Source of the DNA: Acidimicrobiales bacterium
Lineage (GTDB): Bacteria; Actinomycetota; Acidimicrobiia; Acidimicrobiales; SZUA-35
Reading direction: 5' to 3'
Assembly (NCBI GenBank): GCA_965216655.1
Contig: CBDCGP010000005.1
Location: 83,329 to 147,328, forward strand
DNA length: 64,000 nt
Below the pieces are notes generated by a model. The model saw only the letters and a list, made by a program, of their open reading frames with translations. It did not search any database and was not told the DNA's origin. The position numbers and the translations under genes are program-made. This document shows positions 3,346 to 30,044 of the stretch, one piece after another. Each line of letters starts with the position of its first letter. Position 1 is the stretch's first letter.

Positions 3346-4689
3346 ATGTCCGGACGCGTACGACGTTCACCAAATCCGAGTCAGGTCGGATTCCCGCTTA
3401 CCCGCAGGAAGTTCATCGCCGGCAGTGCCTCGGCGGTCGGTGCAGCCGCCTTCCTTGCCGCATGCGGCAGCGACGACGACTCCACCGAAGCCGGCTCCAG
3501 CGGCGGCACCTTCGAGCTGGGAACCGCCTCCGGCACCCTGCGCGTCGGCTCCAACTACTCCGACGAGAAGCCCAACGAGGGGCTTCGAGCCGCCCTCGAC
3601 GCCTTTCCCAACGAGGACGTGACCATCGAACTGAACGAGGTGGATCACAACACCTATCAGGAGCAGATCGTCGCCTACATGCAGGATCCGCCGGACGACG
3701 TCGCCCCGTGGTTCGCGGCCTACCGCCTGGTGCCACTGGCCTCCGCCGGCCTCCTGATGGACATCAGCGACGTGTGGACCACCGCCCTCGACGACGTCCT
3801 CTCCGGCGGCTTCAAGCAGGCCTCGACCTATGAGGACGCCCAGTACCTCGTGCCCTGGACCTTCTACTCCTGGGGCATTCACTACCGCAAGAGCGTCTGG
3901 GAATCGGTCGGCGCCACGCCTCCTGAGGATTGGGAGGGCCTGCTCGCCCTCTGCGAGGAGCTGCAGGGCCAGGGCATCACCCCCTTCTCCTCGGGCAACG
4001 ACGGCCGCTGGCCGGCGATGGGCACCTTCGATCAGATCAACTTCCGGCTCAACGGCTACCAGTATCACGTCGACCTGATGGCCGGCCGGGAGAGCTGGAC
4101 CGACGACCGGACCAAGGACGTGTTCGCCCGCTGGGCCGAGATTCTGCCCTACCACCAGGAGAACCCCAACGGTCGTGAGTGGCAGGACGCCGGTCAGGCC
4201 TTGGTCGACGGCGAGACGGCGATGTATACCATCGGCAACTTCGTCGGTGACCTGTTCCCCAACGAGGAACTCGAGGATCTCGACTTCTTCCCGTTCCCGA
4301 CCCTCAACGAGGAGCACGGCCAGGACACGGTCGAGGCCCCGATCGACGGGTGGGTCGTGGTCGCCGATCCGGAGAACGAGCAGGCCGCCAAGGAACTGGT
4401 CGCCCACATGGGCACCGCGGCGGCACAGAACGCCTTCCTCGAAGTGGCGCCCGGTGTGCAGGCTCCGGCTGAAGGTGTCGACACCAGCTCCTACTCCGAG
4501 CTGCAGAAGAAGTCGGCCGACCTGGTGCAGAACGCGGCCAACGTGACCCAGTTCCTCGATCGCGACACGCTGCCCGCGTTCGCCAACGAGGCGGGCCAGG
4601 CGTTCGCCGACTTCCTGAACGACCCCTCCGGCATCGATGCGATCCTGGAGGATCTGCAGGGCAAGGCCGAGACGCTCCTCACCGAGTAG
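3346..4689 (+). CDS. ABC sugar transporter substrate-binding lipoprotein (SBP family 1)
   Basis: 447-aa ORF. It has a Tat-like RRKF motif, a lipobox LAAC-G and a GGGGAGAA SD upstream. Composition is typical of a sugar SBP. Confidence 0.85.
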   Translation: MSGRVRRSPNPSQVGFPLTRRKFIAGSASAVGAAAFLAACGSDDDSTEAGSSGGTFELGTASGTLRVGSNYSDEKPNEGLRAALDAFPNEDVTIELNEVDHNTYQEQIVAYMQDPPDDVAPWFAAYRLVPLASAGLLMDISDVWTTALDDVLSGGFKQASTYEDAQYLVPWTFYSWGIHYRKSVWESVGATPPEDWEGLLALCEELQGQGITPFSSGNDGRWPAMGTFDQINFRLNGYQYHVDLMAGRESWTDDRTKDVFARWAEILPYHQENPNGREWQDAGQALVDGETAMYTIGNFVGDLFPNEELEDLDFFPFPTLNEEHGQDTVEAPIDGWVVVADPENEQAAKELVAHMGTAAAQNAFLEVAPGVQAPAEGVDTSSYSELQKKSADLVQNAANVTQFLDRDTLPAFANEAGQAFADFLNDPSGIDAILEDLQGKAETLLTE

Positions 4690-4726
4690 TCGGCGGCACG
4701 ACAATCCACGGCAATCCGGCAATCCG

Positions 4727-4756
4727 ATGGGCCCACCCTTCGGTGGGTGGGCCCAT
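4727..4756 (+). other. Intercistronic perfect 12-bp stem-loop between the SBP and permease genes
   Basis: ATGGGCCCACCC-ttcggt-GGGTGGGCCCAT. It lies 38 nt after the SBP stop. The ORF-track start at 4747 falls inside the stem, so I moved the permease start to GTG 4780. Confidence 0.5.
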
Positions 4757-4779
4757 CGACAACACCACAAGGGGGATCG

Positions 4780-5805
4780 GTGACGACAGCAACGCCGCCC
4801 GTGCCTGAAGAGGCCACCGAAGGTATCGAAGCCGCCGACAACGACGCGGCAACCGCCGGCTCGTCGAACGGCCGGAAGTCCAGATCACAGTTCGAGGGGC
4901 GGGATCGGCGGGTCTTCCTCGCCATGTTGCTCATCCCCACGGCGATCCACGTGCTCATCGTGTGGATTCCGACATTGCTGTCGATCGTGTTGTCGTTCAC
5001 CCGATGGAACGGCATCAGGATGAGCGACCTGTCGTGGTCGGGTCTGACCAACTACGACGACATCATCCTCGGGGCTTTCCAGCCCGATTTCATCCAGGCC
5101 GTGCTCAACAACGTGTGGCTGCTCCTGTTCCTCTTCCTGGGACCGACGCTGCTGGGCATGTTCCTGGCCTACCTGCTCGACAAGAACATCAAGGGCACCC
5201 GGGTCTACCAGAGCGTGTTCTACACGCCCGTCGTGCTCTCGCTGGCCGTCGTCGGCTTCATCTGGCAGAACATCATGTACGACCAGGAGTACGGTCTGGC
5301 CACCTGGGCCTTCGGCGGCGGCGGAACCGTCGACTGGCTGGGCAACCAGGACTTCCTGATCTCCATCGGCGACTACGGTCTGTCGAAGAACTTCATCGCC
5401 ATCCTGGCCGCCATGGCCTGGCGCCACACCGGATACATCATGGTCCTCTACCTGGCCGGGCTCAAGAGCGTCGACGCCTCGCTGAAGGAGTCGGCCGCTC
5501 TCGACGGCTGCAACGAGTGGCAGACGTTCCGCCACGTGCTGTTCCCCACCCTCAAGCCGATCAACGTGATCGTGGTGGTCATCACCGTCATCGAGGCGTT
5601 GCGGGCGTTCGACATCGTGTACGTGCTCAACACGCCCCGCAACACCGAGCTGCTGTCGATCCTCACCACCGACAACCTCATCGGTGAGGGCGCCGACAAC
5701 ATAGGGCGGGGGTCGGCCTACGCCACCGTGCTGTTCCTGCTGTGTATCGGCTTCGTGCTCTGGTACGTCACCAACCACTATCGGAACCAGGAGACCTCGG
5801 TATGA
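4780..5805 (+). CDS. ABC sugar transporter permease (MalF/BPD type)
   Basis: In frame with the 4747 ORF. GTG 4780 is preceded by AAGGGGGA. The protein has multiple TM segments and an EAA-like loop (ESAALDGCNEWQTFRHVLFP). Confidence 0.8.
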   Translation: MTTATPPVPEEATEGIEAADNDAATAGSSNGRKSRSQFEGRDRRVFLAMLLIPTAIHVLIVWIPTLLSIVLSFTRWNGIRMSDLSWSGLTNYDDIILGAFQPDFIQAVLNNVWLLLFLFLGPTLLGMFLAYLLDKNIKGTRVYQSVFYTPVVLSLAVVGFIWQNIMYDQEYGLATWAFGGGGTVDWLGNQDFLISIGDYGLSKNFIAILAAMAWRHTGYIMVLYLAGLKSVDASLKESAALDGCNEWQTFRHVLFPTLKPINVIVVVITVIEALRAFDIVYVLNTPRNTELLSILTTDNLIGEGADNIGRGSAYATVLFLLCIGFVLWYVTNHYRNQETSV

Positions 5806-6773
5806 CCGACACCGACGCCAACGTCACCGACAGCGCAACCGACACCGATACCACCGGAGCCGACGTCGCCGAGGCCCAGAGCAATGGCGGTTCAGGCAAC
5901 CTCGTCATCGACAAGAAGCCGACGAAACCGGCTCGCTTCGCCCTCCACTTCTTCCTGATCGCACTCGGCGTCCTCTGGCTGGTGCCGCTCGTGGTGTCGC
6001 TCTACGCGTCGTTCCGGCCCTTCAGCGAAACCCAGGCCAAGGGGTTCCTGTCGACTCCCGACAAGCTGGACCTCGAGAACTATCGATCGGCCCTCGACCA
6101 GGGCGACTTCATCGACAAGTACTGGAACACCGCGCTGATCCTCGTGCCGTCGTTGTTGCTCACGCTGTTCCTGGCCTCCCTGGTCGCCTTCGTGGCCAGC
6201 CGCTACTCGTGGCGGTTCAACATCTTCTTCCTCGTGCTGTTCACTGCCGGCAACCTGCTGCCGCAGCAGATCATGGTCGCACCTTTGTTCCAGGCGTTCC
6301 GCCGGATCCCGCTGCCGGAGTTCATGTCGAACTCGGGCAACCTCAACGGATCGAACTGGGCGATCATCCTGTTGCACGTCGGCTTCCAGATGGGGTTCTG
6401 CACGTTCGTGCTGAGCAACTACATGAAGCTGTTGCCCAAGGAGCTCAACGAGGCGGCGATGGTCGACGGCGCCAGTCTGTGGACCATCTACTCCAAGGTG
6501 GTGATGCCGCTGACCCGCCCGGCGCTGGCCGCCCTGGCCACCCTCGAGTTCGCCTGGATCTACAACGACTTCTTCTGGGCCGTCATCTTCGAGCAGCGGG
6601 GCGACGATCGCCCCATCACCTCGGCGCTGGCCAACCTGGGTGGCGAGTTCGTGACCGACACCAACGTGGTGGCGGCGGCGTCGATCTTCGTGATCATCCC
6701 GGTGATGATCGTGTACTTCGCCCTCCAGAAACACTTCATAGCAGGTTTGACCATGGGCTCAACCAAGGGTTGA
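5802..6773 (+). CDS. ABC sugar transporter permease (MalG type)
   Basis: ATG 5802 overlaps the upstream stop (ATGA). EAA loop: EAAMVDGASLWTIYSKVVMP. The last 8 codons and the stop lie inside the first copy of a 42-bp tandem repeat. Confidence 0.8.
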   Translation: MTDTDANVTDSATDTDTTGADVAEAQSNGGSGNLVIDKKPTKPARFALHFFLIALGVLWLVPLVVSLYASFRPFSETQAKGFLSTPDKLDLENYRSALDQGDFIDKYWNTALILVPSLLLTLFLASLVAFVASRYSWRFNIFFLVLFTAGNLLPQQIMVAPLFQAFRRIPLPEFMSNSGNLNGSNWAIILLHVGFQMGFCTFVLSNYMKLLPKELNEAAMVDGASLWTIYSKVVMPLTRPALAALATLEFAWIYNDFFWAVIFEQRGDDRPITSALANLGGEFVTDTNVVAAASIFVIIPVMIVYFALQKHFIAGLTMGSTKG

Positions 6774-6870
6774 GACCAGTCAAACACTCTGACCATGGGC
6801 TCAACCAAAGGTTGAGACCAGTCAAACACTCTGACCATGGGCTCAACCAAAGGTTGAGGCCAGTCACTCT
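6749..6870. repeat. 42-bp tandem repeat x3, each unit carrying a CTCAACC-aaR-GGTTGAG hairpin
   Basis: Units at 6749-6790, 6791-6832 and 6833-6870. The third unit has one substitution and a 4-nt deletion. Read directly from the sequence. Confidence 0.9.
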
Positions 6871-7002
6871 GCACACACTGCTCTGCGCTCTCCCGATTGC
6901 ATTGAACAGACTGTGCAGCGAAATAGCCGGCACTTGCGCGAAGTAGCTTTAGCTCCTAGAACTAGTCTTACACACTGCTAGTTCACCGCCGATTGGAGCA
7001 CC

Positions 7003-8121
7003 ATGACTCAGATCGCACCCGCCCCCACAAGCCCCGCCGCCCGACTCACCGGATGGGACTCGATCGAGTTCTGGGTCGGCAACGCCCGGGCCATGGCCGG
7101 CTTCCTCACGGGTTCGTTCGGTTTCACCATCACCGCGTATGCCGGACCGGAGACCGGGGTGGCCGACAAGGCCTCCTACCTGCTCGAGCAGGGCAACATC
7201 CGCCTCGTCGTCACCTCCGGCCTCACCCCCGAATCGGAGATCTGGAATCACGTGCGCGCACACGGCGACGGCGCCCGCGACCTCGCCTTCTGTGTCGACG
7301 ACGCCACCGCCACCTTCGAGGCGGCCGTGGCCCGCGGGGCCCGCCCCGTCGACGAGCCCTACGAATTGACCGATGACCACGGCGTACTTCGACTGTCCGC
7401 GGTGGGAACCTACGGCGACACCAAGCACACGTTTGTGGACCGCCGCGACTACCACGGCTACTACTGTCCGGGATTCTCCCGCGACGGCGTGCCCCCGGCC
7501 CAGGTCGGCCCGACCGTCGGCCTGGTCGACATCGATCACGTGGTCGGCAACGTCGAGGAACGTCGGCTCGACGAATGGGTCTCCTTCTACGAGGAGGTGA
7601 TGGGGTTCTCCCAGCTTCGCCACTTCGACGAGTCGCAGATCTCCACCGAGTTCTCGGCGCTGCGGTCCACGGTGGTGTGGAACGGCAACAACATCGTTAT
7701 GCCGCTCAACGAACCGGCCGAGGGCAAACGCAAGAGCCAGATCCAGGAGTACATCGACACCTACCGGGGTCCGGGTGTGCAGCATCTGGCGTTCCGGACC
7801 GACGACGTCGTGCAGGCGATCGGTTCCCTCCGTCAACGTGGTGTACGTTTCCTCGAGGCCAACGACCTCTACTACGCCGACGTCATGACCCGACTCGACT
7901 TCCTCGATCTGCCGTGGGACGAGATCAAGAGGCTTGGCATCCTGGTCGACCACGAACCCGACGGCCATCTGCTGCAGCTGTTCACCGAACCCGTGACCGA
8001 CCGCCCGACCGTGTTCATCGAGATCATTCAGCGGGGCGGAGCCCGAGGCTTCGGCGAAGGCAACTTCAAGGCCCTGTTCGAGTCGATCGAGGCCGAACAG
8101 GCGCGGCGGGGCAACCTGTAG
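7003..8121 (+). CDS. hppD: 4-hydroxyphenylpyruvate dioxygenase
   Basis: 372-aa ORF with two VOC modules. It ends in the characteristic C-terminus GFGEGNFKALFESIEAEQARRGNL. Confidence 0.9.
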   Translation: MTQIAPAPTSPAARLTGWDSIEFWVGNARAMAGFLTGSFGFTITAYAGPETGVADKASYLLEQGNIRLVVTSGLTPESEIWNHVRAHGDGARDLAFCVDDATATFEAAVARGARPVDEPYELTDDHGVLRLSAVGTYGDTKHTFVDRRDYHGYYCPGFSRDGVPPAQVGPTVGLVDIDHVVGNVEERRLDEWVSFYEEVMGFSQLRHFDESQISTEFSALRSTVVWNGNNIVMPLNEPAEGKRKSQIQEYIDTYRGPGVQHLAFRTDDVVQAIGSLRQRGVRFLEANDLYYADVMTRLDFLDLPWDEIKRLGILVDHEPDGHLLQLFTEPVTDRPTVFIEIIQRGGARGFGEGNFKALFESIEAEQARRGNL

Positions 8122-18968: not shown

Positions 18969-19637
18969 CTACCCGTGCGACAGGTTCGTCCAGGCCTCGA
19001 GGATGCGGTCGGCCATCAAACGGTGTTCGCGGGCGATGCCCCGAAGCTCCCGGTTCTCGGTTCGACCGCCGATCGCCACCGCGCCGAACCGGTTACCCCG
19101 GAAGTAGGGCCACAGGTGATCCGGCTGGAAGAACCGGTCCAGGTCGCCCGGAACGTCGATTCCGGTGGGACCGCCGTCGGGCGGTTCGGCCAGGGCGGGA
19201 AGATCCAGCGCTTCGAGCGCCTCGATGACGTCGTCGTCGTGGGTCCGGTCGGCGAAGTCGCGGCCCCGGTAGCCGAAGGCCTCGTTGCCGCCCGGGTCGA
19301 TGACGAGCAGTGCCGGCAATGCGATACCGCCCCGTTCCTCGGGATCGAACAGGCCGAGCGGTTGCAGAAGGGTCTCACCACCGGGATCACTCACATAGCG
19401 GACGTGAGGCGTCGGCCACCGGGCGAACATGCCGGCCTGGCGAACCTCGTCGTCGACGCTGACCGCGATGACCTCGGCCCCGGCCGCGTGAATCCGCTCA
19501 CTGATGGATGCCAGCCGCACGAGCTGGCCGCAGCAATACGGTCACCAGTCACCCCGGTACGTCATCAGCAGCACCGCGCCACTGCCTCGACGTAGGTTCA
19601 ACACATCGTGACGGGCGGTGCTCTCTGATTCGTGCAT
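18969..19637 (-). CDS. Redoxin/peroxiredoxin-like (AhpC-TSA fold) selenoprotein, with in-frame UGA (Sec) at 19544-19542
   Basis: My own reverse-complement of 19501-19640 reads MHESESTARHDVLNLRRGSGAVLLMTYRGDW-TGA-PYCCGQLVRLASISERI. This continues into the 18969-19520 ORF. The UGA sits exactly where the W-C-P-x-C redox cysteine is expected. Confidence 0.75.
19510..19528 (-). promoter_or_regulatory. Candidate bacterial SECIS hairpin for the redoxin UGA
   Basis: The mRNA reads UGA, then 13 nt, then GCCAGC-UCGUGCG-GCUGGC. That is a 6-bp stem with a GU-containing loop about 19 nt after the UGA. Confidence 0.4.
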
Positions 19638-19705: not shown

Positions 19706-21538
19706 TCAATCCGCTTCGTGGCGGACGGCCCGCTCGGCCGGGCCGATGGTGACATCGCACAGCGTGGCGGCGCTGCCGACGATCCCGATGTGGGAGAAGG
19801 CCTGCGGAAAGTTGCCGAGCTGGCGTCGGGCGCCGGGATCGTACTCCTCGGCCAGCAGGCCAACGTCGTTTCGCAGATCGAGAAGGTGCTCGTAGAGTTG
19901 CCGGGCCTGATCGCGACGGCCGGAGAGCGCCAGGGCATCGACCATCCAGAAGCTGCAGAGCAGGAACGTGCCCTCCTCGCCTCCGACGCCGTCGTCGGAG
20001 CGATCGGTGGCGTAGCGATGGACCAGTCCGTCGGTGGTCAGTTCACGCTGGATGGCTTCGACGGTGGCCGTGACGCGGCGATCGGACGGGGGCAGGAAGC
20101 CGACCACCGGAACGAGCAGGGCCGATGCGTCGAGTACGTCGGAACCGTAGGTCTGGATGAAGACGCCATCGGCGTTCACACCGTTGGCACACACCGTTTC
20201 GTGGATCTCGGCGGCGGTTCGTCGCCATCGGTCGGCGTCACCGGGAAGGCCGCCCTGGTCGATGGTCCGGGCGGCACGATCGAAGGCCACCCACGCCATG
20301 ACCTGGGAGTAGGTGTGCCGGGCGGGCTCGCCCCGAGCCTCCCAGATGCCGTCGTCGGGTCGATTCCAGTTGCCCTCGAGCCAGTCCAGCATGGCCAGTT
20401 GCAGCTGCCAGGCGTTCTCGTCGGGTTCCATCCCGGCCTCACGGGCAAGATGCAGGGTTTCGGCCACCTCGCCGTAGACATCGATCTGTAGCTGATCCCA
20501 GGCGCCGTTGCCAGTGCGGACCGGCCGGGAGCCGGCATAGCCGCTCAGCCAATCGAGCTCGATCTCGGGAAGGCGGCGCTCACCGGTCAGTCCGTACATG
20601 ATCTGAACCCGTCCCGGGTCGCCGGCGATCGCCCGCAGGAGCCAGTCCCGCCACGCGGTTGCCTCCTCGGTGCAGCCCGAGGTGAGCATGGCTCCGAGGG
20701 TGAAGGCGGCGTCCCGCAGCCAGCAGTAGCGGTAGTCCCAGTTGCGCGTGCCGCCGATCCACTCCGGCAGTGATGTGGTCGGTGCGGCGACGAATCCTCC
20801 CGAGGGACGGTGCGACAGTCCCTTGAGCGTCACGAGCGAGGACCGGACGTCGTCGGCGTAGGCTCCCGTATAGGAGATTCTCGCCGCCCAGTCCTGCCAC
20901 CATCGGGTGGCGGCCTCCAGTAGATCGGCGGCGCTGCCGGCCGGTGGGGGCTCGTCGGCCGCTCGATACCAGGTCATCAAGAAGCCGACCCGGTCCCCTG
21001 CGCCGACCGTGAACTCGGCGACGGTCGACATGTCGTCGGGGTGCATGTCGACGTCGGACGTCAGGGTCATGGCGTCGGGGCCGCCGACGGCCAAGATCCC
21101 GCCGTCGATGCGACGGACCCAGGGCACGATGCTGCCGTAGTCGAAGCGGATCCGCAGTTCCGATCTCATGGGAACTTCACCACTGCGACCTTCGACGATT
21201 CGGACGAGCCGATGGGGCTCGGCGTCGTCGTCGGAGACGGTCAGGGCGTCGAAGACGCGGACCGTTCCCGACTCCGTGTTGTGTTCGGTGCACAGCACGA
21301 GTGAGTCCTCGAGATACCACCGGTTGGTTCGGACCCGGTCACCGTTGGCCGCCGGTCCGAGGCTCCAGTGACCGCTGTCATCACCGCCGACGAGACGGGC
21401 GAAGCAGGCCGGCGAGTCGAATCGGGGAAAACACAGCCAGTCGACCGATCCAGCCGACGACACGAGTGCACCGGAGCGGCAGTCGCTGAGGTACGCATAG
21501 TCCTCGATCGGGGGCTGTCGGAACGCAGAGCCGCTCAT
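19706..21538 (-). CDS. Glycoside hydrolase family 15 protein (glucoamylase/trehalase-like), cytoplasmic
   Basis: 610 aa. The N-terminus IEDYAYLSDCRSGALVSSAGSVDWLCFPRFDSP is typical of actinobacterial GH15. It also contains WDYRYCWLRDA. Confidence 0.85.
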   Translation of the reverse strand: MSGSAFRQPPIEDYAYLSDCRSGALVSSAGSVDWLCFPRFDSPACFARLVGGDDSGHWSLGPAANGDRVRTNRWYLEDSLVLCTEHNTESGTVRVFDALTVSDDDAEPHRLVRIVEGRSGEVPMRSELRIRFDYGSIVPWVRRIDGGILAVGGPDAMTLTSDVDMHPDDMSTVAEFTVGAGDRVGFLMTWYRAADEPPPAGSAADLLEAATRWWQDWAARISYTGAYADDVRSSLVTLKGLSHRPSGGFVAAPTTSLPEWIGGTRNWDYRYCWLRDAAFTLGAMLTSGCTEEATAWRDWLLRAIAGDPGRVQIMYGLTGERRLPEIELDWLSGYAGSRPVRTGNGAWDQLQIDVYGEVAETLHLAREAGMEPDENAWQLQLAMLDWLEGNWNRPDDGIWEARGEPARHTYSQVMAWVAFDRAARTIDQGGLPGDADRWRRTAAEIHETVCANGVNADGVFIQTYGSDVLDASALLVPVVGFLPPSDRRVTATVEAIQRELTTDGLVHRYATDRSDDGVGGEEGTFLLCSFWMVDALALSGRRDQARQLYEHLLDLRNDVGLLAEEYDPGARRQLGNFPQAFSHIGIVGSAATLCDVTIGPAERAVRHEAD

Positions 21539-21566: not shown

Positions 21567-23072
21567 TTATGGCGTCCGATACCGGGGGCGAAACGCCAGG
21601 AGTGATTCGCCGAGACCTCCGGGTCGGCTGGAGCCGAGCCAGGCGGCGGCCTGGGCGTGGCGGACGGCCTCCACCTCGTCGGCGCCTACCGCCTCGCCAC
21701 GCAGATGGCGGAGCGCGAGCATGGCGGCGCTGCACGCCGCGGTCAGCTCGGCGGCGATGATGCGCCCCCGTTCGGTGGCGGGGCTGAGCTCGGGCCAGCG
21801 ACGGTTGGCGTCGGTCAACACTTCCATCGCCGCTCGGACCGCCTCGTCGTCGAGGTCGCCGACCACGGGGAACAGCACGTCGAAGACGGCGGCGCCCAGC
21901 GGTGTGCCGTTGGCCGTCCACGCACCGAGGTTCTCGCCAAGGTGTCCAACGCGGTCGAGCAGTGCACCGAATCCCGGCCGGGCACCGAGGAGATCGTCCA
22001 CGATCGAACCCACGTCGAGCCTGTTCTCACCGGGGCCGAGAACCGCGGCACCGTGCCACGCGGCGTGGGCGGCCCGGACGATCGACGGCACCGACACCAC
22101 CAATGGTTGCCAGTGACCGTGGTCGCCCCAGTCACAGAGCATCATCGCACGGGCGCCACGTCGGGTGCCGACCGCCACCGCGTCGGCGATGTTGGCCGCG
22201 GCGTTGGCGTTGCGACCGATCAACGTGGCCCACGACGAGGTTCCGGCCGCCACCCGGAACGGCACCGCGGCATCGACCAGCAGTCGAACATGGGCCTCGA
22301 ACCCGTCAGCGGCGTCGTCGGGCAACCCGAGACGGTCCTCGAACGCGGCCGGCAGCAGACCTCGCCAGCTGCGGCCCGGAGCCTCGTAGTTCCAGCCAAC
22401 GACGGTCACCCCGTCGGGCACCCACTCCACCGCCTCGGCATCCCGGCGGAACTGGTCACCCCAGATCATCACCTCGAGGCCGTCGGCCACCAGCGGTTCG
22501 ATGATGCGCCGGAGATGTGCTCGATAGACGACGCCTCGGCCGAGACGGTCGACTTGCGCCCGGGATCGGCCAAGGCCCAACTCGAACGGTTCGTCGCCGC
22601 CGATCATGACGCGACCGGCGCCGGTAGCCTCGACCAGCCGGCGGGCCAGGCCAATGGCGAAGTCGGCGTTGTCGGCCGTCGGCGCCAGACACGACGGCGG
22701 AGCTGTGCCATCGCCCACCAGCGAGGGATATCCATCGGGACACTCGGCCCGATCCCGGTACCGATCATGGGCCAGCCATCGCTCCATGTGCCCGAAGCAG
22801 TTGAGGCTGGGGACCAGCTCGATACCGGCGTCGGCCGCCCGCCGCCGGAGCCAGGCCATGTCGTCGCCGGTGAGGGCCGATGCGTCGGCCCACACGGTCT
22901 CGTGCCCGGGGTGGGCAAAGGTGTGTTCGATGTAGAGGTGAAGTTCGGTGTAGCGCAGGCGGCCCAGGAGATCGATGAGCCAACCGAGCGTGTCGAGGGT
23001 CGGTACCCGATCCCTCGACACGTCGAGCTGGAATGCCCGCCGGGTCAGGACCGGATCACCGTTGAAGTCCAT
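21567..23072 (-). CDS. GH20-like (beta-N-acetylhexosaminidase catalytic-domain family) protein, no signal peptide
   Basis: 501 aa. It contains RAFQLDVSRD, YTELHLYIEHTF, VPSLNCFGHM and the adjacent D-E pair in MIGGDEPFE. The start lies 15 nt after the selD stop. Confidence 0.7.
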   Translation of the reverse strand: MDFNGDPVLTRRAFQLDVSRDRVPTLDTLGWLIDLLGRLRYTELHLYIEHTFAHPGHETVWADASALTGDDMAWLRRRAADAGIELVPSLNCFGHMERWLAHDRYRDRAECPDGYPSLVGDGTAPPSCLAPTADNADFAIGLARRLVEATGAGRVMIGGDEPFELGLGRSRAQVDRLGRGVVYRAHLRRIIEPLVADGLEVMIWGDQFRRDAEAVEWVPDGVTVVGWNYEAPGRSWRGLLPAAFEDRLGLPDDAADGFEAHVRLLVDAAVPFRVAAGTSSWATLIGRNANAAANIADAVAVGTRRGARAMMLCDWGDHGHWQPLVVSVPSIVRAAHAAWHGAAVLGPGENRLDVGSIVDDLLGARPGFGALLDRVGHLGENLGAWTANGTPLGAAVFDVLFPVVGDLDDEAVRAAMEVLTDANRRWPELSPATERGRIIAAELTAACSAAMLALRHLRGEAVGADEVEAVRHAQAAAWLGSSRPGGLGESLLAFRPRYRTP

Positions 23073-23087
23073 CGGGGCCGGATGCCG

Positions 23088-24131
23088 TCAGGCCAGTTTG
23101 AACAACGGTTCGCCTTCAGAGATCGAGCCGATCCTGGCCGCCGTGTGGCCACTGTCGGCCAAAGCCCCCAGCACCGACTCGGTTTCACCGGGGTCGACGC
23201 CGAACACCAGCCCGCCCGAGGTCTGGGCATCGGCGATCAACAGCTGCGATCGCTCGTCGTGGGAGCCGGGGTCGAGCAGCTCAGCACCCCACGCCAGGTT
23301 GCGCCGGCTGCCTCCCGGCACCATACCTTCGGCCGCCAGATCGGCGGCCCCGGGCAGGAACGGAACGGCGTCGAACTCGACCGTCACCCGGACCTGGGAC
23401 TCCACGGCCATCCGCCCGAGGTGGCCGAGCAGGCCGAACCCGGTGACGTCGGTGCAGCCGGTCGCCCCGGCCTCGACGGCCACCCGGGAGGCGACGTCGT
23501 TGATCCGGGTCATCGAGGCGATGGCCGCCTCGGCCACCTCCGCCGGCGCGACATCGGCCTTGATGGCGGTGGTGATGACGCCGACACCGAGTGGTTTGGT
23601 CAGGATCAGATCCTGGCCCGGCTGAAGGCCGGCGTTGGTGAGGATCCGATCGGGGTGGACCTCCCCGGTGACCGACATGCCGTACTTGGGTTCCGGGTCG
23701 TCGATGGTGTGACCGCCCACGATGGCGAACCCGGCGGCGGTGGCGATGTCCTGGCCGCCGGCGAGGAGTTCACCGAGGAGCGAGGTGGGGAGCGCGTCGG
23801 TGTTCCAGCCCACCAGGTTCAGCGCGAACAGGGGGCGGCCACCCATGGCGTAGACGTCGGAGACGCTGTTGGCCGCGGCCACCCGGCCCCACGTGCGAGC
23901 GTCGTCGACGACGGGGGTGATGAAATCGGCGGTCGAGATGAGGGCCCGGTTGTCGTCCAGTTTCCAGACGGCGGCGTCGTCACCGGTGTCGGTGCCGACC
24001 AGGAGTTCGGCCGGTTGGTCGGGGTGCAGGTCGCGCACGACGTGCGCGAGCTCGCCGGGGGCGAGCTTGCAGCCTCAACCGGCGCCGTGGCTGAACTGGG
24101 TGAGACGGTGGGTCACGTGTTCGTCGGTCAC
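23088..24131 (-). CDS. selD: Selenophosphate synthetase (SelD/SenC), Sec-containing, with in-frame UGA at 24077-24075
   Basis: The track ORF (23088-24038) is clearly SelD (GTDTGDDAAVW, AANSVSDVYAMGG). Extending upstream in frame gives VTDEHVTHRLTQFSHGAG-TGA-GCKLAPGELAHVVRDLH. This equals the E. coli LTQYSHGAGCGCKI loop with Sec in place of Cys17. GTG start at 24131. Confidence 0.9.
24033..24067 (-). promoter_or_regulatory. Candidate SECIS region for the selD UGA (two adjacent hairpins)
   Basis: The mRNA downstream of the UGA carries AGCUCGCC-ccc-GGCGAGCU (24067-24049) and GCGCAC-guc-GUGCGC (24047-24033). Confidence 0.4.
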
Positions 24132-24172
24132 AGCATTCAGGCTAGCCAGGCCGGCACTGGTACGGTTTTTCC

Positions 24173-25471
24173 ATGGCACTGGAGACCTGGGTCGACAGCG
24201 ACGATCTTGCCGAGTGGGTGCAGGACGCCACCGAGTATCTGATCGGAACCGTGGCCGATTTCGACCACGACGACGAGCGCTGGATGGGCCCGTATCTGCC
24301 GATAGTCAACCCGCCCATCTGGGAGCTGGCCCATGTCGGCTGGTTCGCCGAGTGGTTCGTGCTCCGCCAGTTGCACGGTCGCGATCCGCTCATGGAGAAC
24401 GTCGACGAACGCTACGACTCGGCGTTGGTGGCCCACAAGACCCGATGGCAGCTCGACTACCCCGACTCGGCCCGCACCATCGACTACGTCCGCCGGGTGG
24501 CCGACGGGTTGGTCGACGTCGTCGGCAACGACGGCGGCCTCGACTCCACCGCCTACTACGTCGCCTACGCCGTCATGCATCACGACGCCCATTGCGAGGC
24601 GCTCACCTACACCCGCCAGACCCTCGATTGGGGGCCACGCCCCGGCGGCTCCGCGTCTGAACCGGTCACCGGGGAACCGATCTCCGGCGATCGACGGGTG
24701 GGCGGCGGTCGGGTCCTCCTCGGGGCGTCCCGGAAGCAGCCCTTCGTCATGGACAACGAGAAGTGGGCCCACCCGGTGCAGGTCGACGAGTTCGATCTGG
24801 CTGTCGCCCCGGTCACCGTGGCCGATTTCGCAGCCTTCGTCGACGACGGCGGTTATGGCAACGACACCGTGTGGTCACCCGACGGCCTGACCTGGCGCCA
24901 TGATACCGGCGCCACCGAACCGGCGTACTGGCGCCGTGGCGCCGATGGCTGGGAACGCCGCATCGGTGCCGACTGGCAGCCGATCGCCGACACCGCCGAC
25001 CATCCGATGGTGCACGTCAGCTGGTGGGAGGCCGAGGCCTGGTGCACCTGGGCCGGGCGGCGGCTGCCCACCGAGGCCGAGTGGGAGGCGGCCGCCACCA
25101 CCACGCCGTCGGGCGAACGGCTTCCCTGGTTCCCGTGGGGCGGACGGGATCCGCTCCCCTCCGAGGCGGCGCTCGACGGCCGGACCGGCGGCACCGTACC
25201 GGTCGGAGCCTTCGGAGCCGGCGACGGTCCGTGGGGCCACCGGCAGCTCATCGGCAACGTCTGGGAGTGGACGGCCACCACGTTCGGCCCGTATCCCCAC
25301 TTCGAGCCCGACGCCTACCGCGACAACTCCGAGCCGTGGTTCGGCACCCGCAAGGTGCTGCGGGGCGGATCGTGGGCCACCCGCAACCGCTACGTGCGGT
25401 CGACCTACCGCAACTACTTCACCCCTGACCGGCGCGACGTCTACGCCGGATTCCGCACCTGCCCACGGTGA
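24173..25471 (+). CDS. senA: EgtB-like DinB_2 + FGE-sulfatase-domain C-S/C-Se bond-forming enzyme; SenA-type (selenoneine synthase) by context
   Basis: 432 aa. The N-terminal DinB-like part has WELAHVGWFAEWF and VMHHDAHCEAL. The C-terminal FGE part has HPMVHVSWWEAEAWCTWAGRRLPTEAEWE, GNVWEWT and RGGSW. It is divergent from selD and followed by a GT-B gene. No egtA/C/D neighbours. Confidence 0.7.
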   Translation: MALETWVDSDDLAEWVQDATEYLIGTVADFDHDDERWMGPYLPIVNPPIWELAHVGWFAEWFVLRQLHGRDPLMENVDERYDSALVAHKTRWQLDYPDSARTIDYVRRVADGLVDVVGNDGGLDSTAYYVAYAVMHHDAHCEALTYTRQTLDWGPRPGGSASEPVTGEPISGDRRVGGGRVLLGASRKQPFVMDNEKWAHPVQVDEFDLAVAPVTVADFAAFVDDGGYGNDTVWSPDGLTWRHDTGATEPAYWRRGADGWERRIGADWQPIADTADHPMVHVSWWEAEAWCTWAGRRLPTEAEWEAAATTTPSGERLPWFPWGGRDPLPSEAALDGRTGGTVPVGAFGAGDGPWGHRQLIGNVWEWTATTFGPYPHFEPDAYRDNSEPWFGTRKVLRGGSWATRNRYVRSTYRNYFTPDRRDVYAGFRTCPR

Positions 25472-25508: not shown

Positions 25509-26511
25509 GTGAGCGGTCGCTCCATCGTCATCGCCGCCCCGATCCGGCCGACGGCCCGGTCGGGCAACGACGTGACCGCCGGTCGTTGGGCTGATCATCT
25601 CGAGCGGCTCGGCCACCACGTCACGGTCGTGGCGGCCGACGAGCAGGCCGACCGGCCCGACGAGGAGACGGCTGCGCTGCTCGACGCCGCCGACATGCTG
25701 ATCGCCATCCATGCCCGGCGGTCCGCTCCGGTCATTGCCTGGTGGGCCGACCGGCATCCGGACCGACCGGTCGTCGTCGCCCTCAGCGGAACCGACCTCT
25801 ACGGTGATTTGCCGACCAGCGATGGCGCAGTGGCCTCGGTGGAGCGCGCCTCGGCACTCATCGTGCTCCAGCGGGCGGCGGCGGAGCGAGTGGCCGGCCT
25901 GAGGGCCGAGTGGGGTGACAAGACCACGGTGATCCATCAGTCGGTGGCGCCGCCGTTGCCGCCCCGCCGACCGGCGGACGACGAGCTCAGGGTCGTGGTG
26001 CTGGCCCATCTCCGGTCGGTCAAGGACCCGCTGTTGACGGCAAGGGCGGCCCGACACCTCGACCCGGCGAGCCGGGTCACCGTCCACCACGCGGGACAGG
26101 CCTTCGACCGGCGATGGGAGGAGGAGGCGATCGAGGAGCAGGCCGCCAACCCCCGCTACCACTGGCACCGCGAACTCGACCGGGACGCCGCACTCGAACT
26201 GCTCGCCACCGGTCGCGCCCTGGCCTGCACGTCGCTGACCGAGGGAGGCGCCAACGTCGTCACCGAAGCCATTGGCCCTCGGCGTGCCCGTCATCGGCAC
26301 CCGGATCGACGGCAACACCGGGTTGCTGGGTCATGACTACCCCGGGCTGATACCGGTCCGCGATGTGGAGGCCATGGCCGACCTGCTGCGTCGCCTCGAA
26401 ACCGATCCCCTGCTGTTGGCCGAGCTGCAGCGCCGCACCAATGAGCTGAAACCCATCACCGACCCGGCCGCCGAGCGGGCCGGTCTGGCCGCGGTGCTCG
26501 CCTCCCTCTGA
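25509..26511 (+). CDS. senB: GT-B glycosyltransferase, SenB-type (selenosugar synthase) by context; split by a 1-nt frameshift near 26275 as assembled
   Basis: GTG 25509 lies 38 nt after senA. Frame 1 reads up to ...TEGGANVVTEAI. Frame 2 (26272 ORF) continues ALGVPVIGTRIDGNTGLLG, restoring the canonical GT-B motif E-A-x-A-x-G-x-P-V. Removing one G (26274-75) or one C (26276-78) repairs the frame. Confidence 0.65.
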
Positions 26512-28233
26512 TCAGCGGATGGATCGGCGAATCGCGGCCGACGCGAAATCGACGGCCACGGTGACCACGAACAGCGCCACGATGGTGGCCAGAATGCCGT
26601 CGTAGTTGAACGACGCCGTCTGTTCGTCGAGGCGGCGGCCGAGGCCGGCGGCGCCGACGACGCCCACGATGACCGTCTCCCGGATCGCCACCTCCCACCG
26701 GTAGAGACCGAGGGCGACGAACCGTCCGGCCACCGCAGGCACGGTGGCCAGTGTGAACGACCCGGCGGCGGTGGCCCCGGTGGCGGCCAGGATCCGGGCC
26801 GGGCGTTGGTCATGGTTCTCCAGCACCTCGCCTTGGAGCCGACCCAGCACGCCTGTGTTGTAGACCGCCAGCGCCACGGCCCCGGGCCACAGTCCGGGAA
26901 ACAGCACGAAGACCGTGATGAAGGCCCACACCGGCGGCGGCACCGAGCGGGCCACGAGCAGGACGAACCGGACGATGGCGGCCAGTGCGCTGCGGACCGC
27001 CGCCCCCACACCGGACGCCGCCCGGCGGGGGCGTTGGGCGACGAAGGCCACAGGAGACGCCATGGCGAAAGCCAGGCCGATCGACAGGATGGCCAAGGCG
27101 ATGGTGTCGAGCGAGTCGTCGACGAGTTCCCGCAAACCGCCCGCGCCGATCTCGGGAGGCCAGCTGTCCTCAACCAGTTCGCCGGCCAGCAGCCGGGCCC
27201 GGTCGTCCCACAACGTCGAGACGTCGATGCCGAGCCGCCAGTAGGCGATCGGCAGCGAAACGGTGAGCAGCAGCGCGCTGAAGCGCAGGAACCGGTCGTT
27301 GTTCGGACGGCCGTTGGTCCGGGTGGTCCGCGTGGCCGGGGAGGCCAGGCTGGAGCCGGTGGTCTCGGCCACCGAAACGTGGGTCTCGGCGGCCAGGGCG
27401 TTGCGCCGCCGCCGGACCGCCGATGACCAACGGTCGGCGATACCGGACAGGATGATGAGCGCCCACAGCAGGGTCCACATCTCGTCATAGCGCAGCGATT
27501 GGAATGAGAGCGCCAGCTGGAATCCGAGTCCGCCGGCCCCGACGATCCCGAGCACGGCGGCGCTGCGAAGGCTGCACTCGAAGCGGTAGAACGCGTACGA
27601 GAGCAGGTCGCTCAGCGCCTGGGGGATGGTGGCGAAGGTGAGGGCGACGACCCGGCCGGCACCGGCGGCTCGCATGGAACGCTCGGCGTCACCGGACACC
27701 TCGTCGATCAGTTCGGCGAAGACCTTGGCGGTGACCGCGCCGAACGGGATGCCGATGGCCAGCACGGCGACAAGGGGGTTGAGACCGAGGATGTTGACGA
27801 GGATCAGTCCGAACACGACCTCGTGCATCGAGCGGGGGATGACCATCAGGGTCCGGCCGACCATCCAGCCGAGCCGACCACGGCCCATCGTGCCGTGGAT
27901 CGGCGTCCAGATCCGTTCGGTGAGCAGCGGGCCGAACACCATGCCGATGGCCACGGCCAGCGCGGTGCCCAGGAGCGCATAGCCCACCGTCACCGCCGAC
28001 TCCCGCAGGGTCAGCTCCAGCATTTCGGCGCTGAGGTCGGGGCGGACCATGGCGGCGAAGAAGGCGGTGACCTGCGACCAGCCCCGTTCGTTGATCAGCT
28101 CGGAGGGATCGGCGCCGGCCTTGGCCACCGACCAGGCCACCAGTCCGGCGACGACGGCCGCCCACCATCGCCGGTCCCGCCGCACCGGGCGCTGCGCGAT
28201 GACGACCGGGCGACGTTCGAGAACGGTCGTCAC
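26512..28233 (-). CDS. phnE: Phosphonate-type ABC transporter permease (fused double PhnE)
   Basis: 573 aa, made of two PhnE-like halves. It is convergent and abutting senB. GTGA-type overlap with phnC. Confidence 0.85.
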   Translation of the reverse strand: MTTVLERRPVVIAQRPVRRDRRWWAAVVAGLVAWSVAKAGADPSELINERGWSQVTAFFAAMVRPDLSAEMLELTLRESAVTVGYALLGTALAVAIGMVFGPLLTERIWTPIHGTMGRGRLGWMVGRTLMVIPRSMHEVVFGLILVNILGLNPLVAVLAIGIPFGAVTAKVFAELIDEVSGDAERSMRAAGAGRVVALTFATIPQALSDLLSYAFYRFECSLRSAAVLGIVGAGGLGFQLALSFQSLRYDEMWTLLWALIILSGIADRWSSAVRRRRNALAAETHVSVAETTGSSLASPATRTTRTNGRPNNDRFLRFSALLLTVSLPIAYWRLGIDVSTLWDDRARLLAGELVEDSWPPEIGAGGLRELVDDSLDTIALAILSIGLAFAMASPVAFVAQRPRRAASGVGAAVRSALAAIVRFVLLVARSVPPPVWAFITVFVLFPGLWPGAVALAVYNTGVLGRLQGEVLENHDQRPARILAATGATAAGSFTLATVPAVAGRFVALGLYRWEVAIRETVIVGVVGAAGLGRRLDEQTASFNYDGILATIVALFVVTVAVDFASAAIRRSIR

Positions 28234-28988
28234 GCCGGAGTGGGCTGGTCGAGCAGGTAGAGCTCGGTCAGCATCGCCTCGTCGACCTCGGCCGCCGGCA
28301 GATCGAAGTGCAGCCGGCCGTCACGGAGGGCGACGATGCGGTCGCAATGCCGGAGGGCCAGGGGGGCGTCGTGCATGCTGGCGACCATCCCCCGCCCGGC
28401 TTGTCGGGCCATGCGGGCCAGCACCGTCATCACCGCGTCGGACCGGGAGGGGTCGAGCGCACTGACCGGTTCGTCGGCCAGCAACAGGTCGGGCTCCTGG
28501 AACAGGGCGCGGGCGATGGCCGTCCGCTGTTGCTGGCCGCCGGAGAGTTGGTCGGCCCGCTCCCACAGCTTCTCGGCGATGCCGACGGAGTCGAGCGCGG
28601 CCGAGATCTCGTCGATCGGGGTGGGGCGGACGAGAGCCCGAGCGGCTCTGGCCCACGACCAGCGTCCCAACCGGCCGGCGGCCACGTTGCTCGCCACCCG
28701 CAGCGGCCCGACGAGCGCGAAGTCCTGGCTGATCAGCCCGATCCGGCTGCGATGGTGGCGGTGGGATCGACGGCCGAGCGCGGTGCTGTCCACGCCGAGC
28801 ACCTCGACCCGCCCGGCGCTGGGCAGCACGAGCCCGGCGGCCAGCGACAACACGGTTGACTTGCCGGCGCCCGACGGGCCGACCAGCGCGACCAGCTCAC
28901 CGGCGGCGACCGACAGCGTGAGCCCGTCGACCGCCGCCGGGTCGGAACCGGGATACTGCACGGTGACGTCGTCGAACCGGACGAGCAC
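28230..28988 (-). CDS. phnC: Phosphonate-type ABC transporter ATP-binding protein
   Basis: 252 aa. It has Walker A (GPSGAGKST), the signature LSGGQQQR, Walker B (LLLADEP) and a PhnC-like insert region. Confidence 0.9.
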
Positions 28989-28995
28989 GTTTTTC

Positions 28996-30044
28996 TCAGC
29001 CCTCGATGCTGCCGATCTCCCGGCCGACGGCCTCGATGCTGGCGTAATTGTCGTTGCTGGTCTCGATGAACGACCCGGCGCCGAAGAATTCGAGGATCTC
29101 GGCCTCTTCGGGATTGGACGGATCGAGCGAGGTGAAGGCCTCGATGACCGACGTCGTCAGATCGTCACCGAGCTCGGGGCGGGCCACCCAGTGGTAGTCG
29201 AAGTAGGTCGGGGTCTCGAAGATGACCTGAACCTTCTCGAGGTTGACCTCACCGGCTTCGACCCGGGCGTCCCACACCTGCGAATTGAGGGCACCGACCT
29301 CGAAGGTTCCGGCCTCGACCAGTTCGATGGTGGCGTCATGGGAGCCGCTGAACCCGGGCTCCCCGTCGAGGTCGTCGAGGCTGACCCCGGCGTCGCTGAG
29401 GAACGACTGGGGCATGAGCCGTCCGGATGTGCTCGACTCCGAGCCGAACGTCAGTGTGCGACCGGCGATGGCGCTCAAACCGGCCACGTCGTCGAATGGG
29501 TTCGATGCCGGTGTCGGTGCCGGCGATGAACACCGAGGTGAACTCCTCGTCGATGTCACGCTGGGCGATGGCATCAGCGCCGTCGACCTGCAGCCGAGCC
29601 TGAACACCGGTGAGCCCGCCGAACCAGACGAGGTCGAGATCGCCGACCCGGAAGGCGGTGACGGCGGCGTCGTACTCGGTGACCGGCTCGAAGCGAACCT
29701 CGACCCCCGGTCTCGGCGGCCAGGTAGTCGGCCACCAGCTGGTAGTTGCGGGCCAGGACCTCGGGGTCCTGATCGGGGATGGCCCCGATAACCAGCTCGC
29801 CGTCGAAGTCACCGGCGTCTTCGGCGGCGTCGCCGGCCTCGTCGCTTTCATCGGCTGCGTCGTCGGTTGTTTCTTCCGAGGTGTCGTCGGCGTCGGCGTC
29901 GTCAGCCGCTTCGGTGGTATCCGACGCTGCGGTGGTCTCGGATGACTCGCCGGCCTCGGTCGAGTCGTCGTCGGAGCCACAGGCTGCGGCCAGGAATGCC
30001 AACAGCACGAGGGGAACGAGAAAACGAAGATTGATGTGGCGCAT
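28996..30044 (-). pseudogene. phnD: PhnD-type periplasmic binding lipoprotein, interrupted by two 1-nt frameshifts as assembled
   Basis: Three collinear frames. Frame A: MRHINLRF..LAAACGSDDD..GELVIGAIPDQDPEVLARNYQLVADYLAAETG. Frame B: VEVRFEPVTEYDAAVTAFRVGDLDLVWFGGLTGVQA...[11 protein letters not shown]. Frame C: [25 protein letters not shown]...[11 protein letters not shown]. The shifts are at the C5 run 29704-29708 and the GGG run 29498-29500. Confidence 0.75.

Follow-up and report, generated by a model that had tools for sequence, protein, structure and literature searches.

Introduction

Selenocysteine (Sec)-type selenophosphate synthetases (SelD) are exemplified by those of Haemophilus influenzae and Aquifex aeolicus, the PDB entries 2ZOD/2YYE being the structure of the Aquifex enzyme. 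In E. coli SelD, mutagenesis has shown that the loop carrying Cys17 and Lys20 is needed for activity. Sec-type SelD has been credited, together with FdhA, with maintenance of the Sec trait. It forms the second most widespread prokaryotic selenoprotein family (PMC13188914, PMC1794560), and the proposal that organisms retain the Sec trait for making SelD, from which other selenium pathways are then supplied, dates from 2006 (PMC1794560). For the bacterial selenocysteine insertion element (bSECIS), a published model describes a hairpin with a loop of 3-9 nt, a stem of 4-16 bp and a G in the first two loop positions, located 16-37 nt from the UGA and with a minimum free energy of -7.5 kcal/mol or lower (PMC13188914).

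A selD homologue can also be part of a selenoneine cluster. In Variovorax paradoxus, senC is clustered with senA and senB, and its product delivers selenophosphate to SenB (bioRxiv 10.1101/2022.04.13.486033). Expressed in E. coli from a gene amplified out of genomic DNA, this SenC gave 152 mg per 4 L, so that it is presumably Cys-type, and the preprint on the sen cluster (Kayrouz and Seyedsayamdost; bioRxiv 10.1101/2022.04.13.486033) contains no discussion of a Sec-type SenC. An incomplete search of the literature returned no work linking Sec-type SelD with sen clusters, which is weak evidence of novelty.

Here we describe a selD gene in a 64-kb stretch of DNA from an uncultured member of the Acidimicrobiales (referred to below as the window). 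The gene resembles the known Sec-type bacterial selD genes in encoding the same enzyme family (203 bits to 2YYE), in placing its predicted Sec in the N-terminal Gly-rich loop, and in having a SECIS-like hairpin within the coding region right after the UGA. It differs from them in that the deposited annotations are truncated, in that the signal consists of tandem hairpins with a GU loop 33 nt past the UGA, and in adjoining senA/senB and a putative selenate transporter instead of selA/selB or selU. E. coli SelD (PDB 3U0O) matches the product with 264 bits over residues 8-337, and LTQ[FY]SHGAG-x-GCK is conserved between the two, but the E. coli enzyme has Cys17 where the window gene has UGA, and its gene has no SECIS. 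While V. paradoxus SenC is presumably Cys-type, the window gene is very likely Sec-type and probably has a housekeeping role. Sec-type SelD, the in-frame SECIS and a SelD that both maintains the Sec trait and supplies further selenium pathways are already known principles, and the novelty of this locus is modest: a covarying tandem hairpin, a selenium island (putative selenate importer, senB, senA and selD), and a companion AhpC-like selenoprotein.

Results and discussion

A conserved in-frame UGA at the catalytic position of selD

The gene and its coding signals are located as follows:

23088..24131, minus strand: full-length selD (equivalent to senC), 347 codons including one predicted Sec codon, with its own TGA stop at 23090..23088
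24129..24131, minus strand: probable selD start codon, GTG, with the same start site in relatives
24075..24077, minus strand: in-frame TGA, very likely decoded as Sec (opposite E. coli Cys17), from alignment and conservation
24049..24067, minus strand: hairpin 1, 8 bp, loop CCC, beginning 7 nt past the UGA, -13.2 kcal/mol, z = -4.4
24032..24048, minus strand: hairpin 2, 7 bp, loop GUC at 24041..24039, -10.5 kcal/mol

A mechanical list of open reading frames gives only the part of selD that follows the UGA (23088..24038, opening with GTG). From the GTG at 24131..24129 on the minus strand, the frame reads VTDEHVTHRLTQFSHGAG-TGA-GCKLAPGELAHVV, with the TGA at 24077..24075, beyond which it runs as GCKLAPGELAHVVRDL on to the TGA stop at 23090..23088. 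SelD proteins of relatives start at the matching place, 12-13 residues ahead of LTQF (MTEPVTHRLTQF, MNEPTTFRLTQF), and one of these genes (locus L001) likewise uses GTG.

With Cys in place of the TGA, the 347-aa product scores 380 bits against the selD profile TIGR00476 (cut-off 125) and 365 bits against NF002098 (cut-off 299), and both AIR-synthase-related domains are present (AIRS, PF00586, 88.7 bits; AIRS_C, PF02769, 60.3 bits). By score, domains and Gly-rich loop, the product is a member of the SelD (selenide water dikinase) family, with a predicted function in ATP-dependent selenophosphate synthesis. Its alignment to E. coli SelD (PDB 3U0O) spans residues 6-334 and sets the TGA opposite Cys17 and the K that follows opposite Lys20. 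The preliminary description of this DNA had placed the UGA exactly at the Cys17/Sec position of the Gly-rich loop (HGAG-U-GCKL), which agrees with this alignment. It had also named M 24038 as the start that the protein would have without read-through: a gene-caller start does lie there, but the codon is GTG, not ATG.

To this gene we compared 81 related selD loci, comprising 80 from a scan of contigs of one genome per species, nearly all of them metagenome-assembled genomes (MAGs) of Acidimicrobiales, Ilumatobacteraceae or other Actinomycetota, plus L001. Among the 79 related loci in which the motif was found, the codon at the UGA site is TGA in 64 and TGC or TGT in 15, all of the latter distant. 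TGA is kept in every one of the 51 loci that are at least 60% identical (L001 included; Acidimicrobiales/Ilumatobacteraceae MAGs), and also in 13 loci beyond that identity, Anaeromyxobacter among them. The earlier reading of this codon as a true UGA was thus upheld on alignment against Sec- and Cys-type SelD, and we consider it very likely that selD is a Sec-type selenophosphate synthetase gene whose UGA is read as Sec.

Two covarying hairpins follow the UGA

The two hairpins that had been suggested to lie within about 45 nt of the UGA were recovered at 24067..24049 and 24048..24032. The 57 nt that begin at the UGA have a folding energy of -30.5 kcal/mol (z = -3.56 versus shuffles). We examined covariation across 64 distinct TGA-type selD sequences, aligned without gaps, in which RNAalifold recovers both hairpin 1 and hairpin 2. 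Across both helices 92.1% of cells are paired, compared to 29-43% in controls that shift the partners by 1-3 columns, and 10 of the 15 pairs are changed on both sides; doubly changed cells number 67, against 18.6 expected from shuffling, and the covariation score was reached by none of 500 shuffles. Taken separately, hairpin 1 has 90% of its cells paired and 5 of 8 pairs changed on both sides, and hairpin 2 has 94% paired and 5 of 7 pairs so changed. Several of the compensations are coupled amino-acid changes, such as Leu/Glu to Ile/Asp, which converts C-G to A-U in hairpin 1, and His/Val to Gln/Leu, which converts C-G to G-C in hairpin 2. In the same columns the 15 Cys-type homologues are only 61% (hairpin 1) and 55% (hairpin 2) paired; these genes lack both helices, indicating that the structure and the UGA occur together.

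Hairpin 2 satisfies the published bSECIS model on every count, with its GUC loop, 7 bp, spacing of 33 nt and -10.5 kcal/mol, a result that bears on the bSECIS check proposed earlier for the region 24000-24080. Hairpin 1 alone fails the model, having a loop without G and a spacing of 15 nt. Since only the second of the two passes, hairpin 2 is likely the SelB-binding SECIS, or at least the best candidate for it, and hairpin 1 is probably an accessory spacer or pause element. The assignment is indirect for three reasons: the invariant GU of the hairpin 2 loop also opens a conserved Val codon, the 33-nt spacing is near the upper limit that the model accepts, and two distant Sec-type selD genes of Actinomycetota (L071 and L081) carry, in place of the tandem pair, one longer hairpin whose GGAC loop is at about +23. 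The latter also implies that the architecture of the selD SECIS differs between lineages. Compared with the consensus bSECIS model, the selD signal is unusual in that its spacer is taken up by a further hairpin, likewise conserved and covarying. A search with Rfam at gathering thresholds gave no matches anywhere in the window.

A second selenoprotein gene and the Sec machinery

A second candidate selenoprotein gene lies downstream of selD on the same strand:

18969..19637, minus strand: AhpC/TSA-like selenoprotein gene, with a TGA at 19544..19542 in YRGDW-U-PYCC and a SECIS-like hairpin at 19528..19510

A screen of the window for further in-frame TGAs with coding-like flanks returned only selD and ordinary gene ends; the AhpC-like gene was spotted through a truncated Pfam match. 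When its UGA is read through, the AhpC-TSA score of the product rises from 27.5 to 49.1 bits. The codon is TGA in 28 metagenome relatives (55-78% identity) and TGT in one distant homologue. The hairpin at 19528..19510 has 7 bp, 3 of them compensated, a CGUGC loop, a distance of 13 nt from the UGA and an energy of -10.8 kcal/mol. This loop (xGUxx) is similar to the one that selD hairpin 2 would have if its top pair were open, a likeness that fits recognition of both hairpins by one SelB. These genes would mean that the Acidimicrobiales MAGs of the selD clade, many of whose sequences are marine metagenomic, use selenocysteine, in at least two selenoprotein families.

The window itself holds none of the dedicated decoding genes: tblastn found neither selA nor selB in its 64 kb, and a tRNA search found no tRNA genes there, in agreement with the preliminary description, which had noted the lack of selA, selB and tRNA-Sec from this stretch. 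In an Ilumatobacteraceae MAG (L013, 993..5455), by contrast, a Sec-type selD is followed by a short ORF and then by selA (TIGR00474, 396 bits) and selB (TIGR00475, 274 bits) in a row. The SelD encoded there is 78% identical to ours, so the same SelD orthologue serves the Sec pathway in that genome. SelB is abundant in Ilumatobacter assemblies, and tRNA-Sec adjoins selD in two other Acidimicrobiia loci (L052 and L053). With the second selenoprotein of the window and the selD(Sec)-selA-selB row of L013 behind it, we infer that the organism carries selA, selB and selC.

The absence of selA, selB and tRNA-Sec from the window could be taken to mean that the UGA is read through with no Sec system at all, for instance because a near-cognate tRNA (Trp or Cys) decodes it or because the code is reassigned, with the hairpins only stimulating the event; downstream structures can indeed promote stop-codon read-through in other systems. 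We regard this as improbable. TGA ends 26 of the 34 confident genes of the window, including selD, senA and senB, and a reassigned genetic code is ruled out by this ordinary use as a stop. Each of the two UGAs in the window takes the place of the catalytic Cys in a redox or selenium-binding motif, where Sec would be expected, and in the Ilumatobacteraceae relative selA and selB come directly after the same Sec-type selD. Insertion of Sec is the reading that these observations favor.

Translation of selD very probably begins upstream of the UGA

Throughout the public record, the gene appears without its first part. For the 120 closest SelD proteins listed from a collection of 5.8 billion proteins, lengths are 306-351 aa, nearly all of them 316-318, and query coverage is 86-91%. 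The nine database SelD proteins that we retrieved open with MVRDL, VVRDL, MRDL or MRQL, just past the UGA. Such entries arise because gene callers meet an in-frame stop and begin the protein just after it. The error spans the clade, in that all 120 of the closest entries listed start after the UGA and lack the catalytic loop, and our result on selD is mainly the correction of a gene that databases show truncated.

These same annotations are what supports a start at GTG 24038, which would leave the HGAG motif untranslated and yield a product of 316 aa, but we find this exceedingly unlikely. In the ten codons ahead of the UGA, column entropy is 0.36, 0.21 and 1.14 at codon positions 1, 2 and 3 (65 TGA sequences, the window included), and the peptide RLT-x-[FY]SHGAG is maintained across the same 65 sequences, in the window as RLTQFSHGAG. 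A coding-type pattern of entropy by codon position is found both upstream and downstream of the UGA; as the upstream codons vary mainly at third positions, they must be translated in one frame with the downstream part of selD, under selection at the protein level. Moreover, the alignment to E. coli SelD begins already at residue 6, the 316-aa product would be without the loop that bears Cys/Sec17 and Lys20, and the supposed start codon, GTG 24038, sits inside the 3' arm of hairpin 2.

The genomic neighborhood of selD

Divergently from selD, across a gap of 41 bp, lies senA, followed by senB and by the genes of a transporter on the opposite strand:

24173..25471, plus strand: senA (selenoneine synthase), NF041186 SenA 449 bits, cut-off 420
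25509..26511, plus strand: senB (selenosugar synthase), start uncertain (GTG 25509 or further upstream)
26512..29879, minus strand: PhnE/PhnC/PhnD-like ABC transporter (PhnE and PhnC profile matches), a putative selenate transporter
26512..28233, minus strand: transporter permease, double-length and PhnE-like
28230..29156, minus strand: transporter ATPase
about 28999..29879, minus strand: transporter binding protein

The assembled senB is broken by a 1-nt insertion near 26272..26275 (att-g-gcc for the expected att-gcc). Against the SenB of L001 it gives two tblastn pieces in different frames, and it reaches 309 bits with TIGR04348 (cut-off 300) only after repair of the 1-nt frameshift. The sen context claimed in the preliminary description is borne out by this SenB score and by the SenA match. 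The PhnD-like binding-protein gene (28999..29879) is spread over three frames by two frameshifts and is 67-86% identical to its L001 orthologue, which scores 333 bits with TIGR04553 ('putative selenate ABC transporter substrate-binding protein'). Because the halves of senB remain 63-68% identical to the intact SenB of L001 and the phnD-like gene has two frameshifts of its own, the senB frameshift is probably an assembly error; more generally, the frameshifts in the two genes reflect either indel errors in the assembly or a decaying region, and the high identity retained in all frames favors errors. The sen/transporter pathway may nevertheless not be intact in the organism of the window.

That the selD TGA arose through an error of sequencing, or through a recent mutation that left a pseudogene, and that the true codon is TGC or TGT, has next to no likelihood. 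Lesions do exist close by (senB has one frameshift and the phnD-like gene two), but these defects are indels and not substitutions. TGA recurs in 64 independent assemblies, among them those of all relatives that are at least 60% identical, and it comes with hairpins that are missing from Cys-type genes.

The surroundings of selD vary between genomes. Considering the window and the 81 related loci, senA and senB accompany selD in 8 (the window, L001, L003, L004, L006, L018, L029 and L032). The divergent selD-senA arrangement recurs in L001, L003, L004, L006 and L018, and in L029 and L032 the two sen genes are located about 3.5-4.5 kb downstream of selD. The transporter is linked to selD in 10 loci, namely the 8 with sen genes (in L001 at 4081..7544) and two without them (L005, 6425..9832, and L016, 6475..9879). 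Other selD orthologues have unrelated neighbors, such as an ACT-domain protein, a TetR regulator or a GNAT acetyltransferase. Given its orthology to selD genes that stand alone or are linked to selA/selB, the window gene is probably the housekeeping, ordinary SelD of the lineage, beside which sen genes are found in some genomes, and not a dedicated SenC paralogue.

A model for selenium-dependent SelD synthesis

We propose the following model, built from sequence comparison. Once a ribosome reaches the selD UGA, SelB with Sec-tRNA(Sec) would bind hairpin 2, whose recognition feature would be its 7-bp stem with the invariant GU at the start of the loop, 33 nt past the UGA, while hairpin 1, 7 nt past the UGA, would probably act as a spacer or pause element. 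Insertion of Sec at the UGA would then yield the full 347-aa SelD with the HGAG-U-GCK selenium-binding loop; failing it, the only products would be an 18-residue peptide or an N-terminally truncated SelD devoid of the loop. SelD would supply selenophosphate to SelA for Sec-tRNA synthesis, and would also feed the adjacent SenB/SenA selenoneine pathway, which lies beside the putative selenate ABC importer. The output of SelD, and hence of selenoneine, would in this way depend on both the selenium supply and the Sec machinery.

Where sen genes are present, the selenophosphate for selenoneine would come from a selenoprotein, and selenoneine output should follow selenium status and the Sec machinery. 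The preliminary description had made much of this tie between the Sen pathway and Sec decoding. The sen context on which it rested stands, but its interest was overstated, Sec-type SelD being textbook knowledge and the general idea having been published in 2006 (PMC1794560). A more specific proposal, which we put forward tentatively and think rather doubtful, is that the clade has a distinct two-helix SECIS (the SelB-binding GU loop unusually far from the UGA, at 33 nt, with hairpin 1 as a folded spacer or pause element at the ribosome entrance), and that through this one Sec-type SelD the Sec-decoding system would gate selenoneine synthesis and the linked putative selenate importer, making up a selenium-sensing island with positive feedback.

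Intergenic region and flanking genes

The selD-senA intergenic region (24132..24172) leaves only 41 bp between the divergent start codons. It contains TANNNT-like boxes on both sides, TAGCCT 7 nt upstream of the selD GTG and TACGGT 6 nt upstream of the senA ATG. Boxes of this kind are repeated in L001 (TAGTCT and TACGGT), which hints at leaderless divergent transcripts. A scan of 23000..24400 for the sigma-70 consensus found no promoter-like site, and the scan of this same interval returned one weak terminator-like site inside the selD-senA intergenic region.

Directly downstream of selD, at 21567..23072 on the minus strand, is a 501-aa ORF that resembles GH20 (hexosaminidase) only weakly (E = 0.003) and is missing from all 81 related selD loci. 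Beyond it, at 19706..21538 on the minus strand, follows a GH15/trehalase-like gene.
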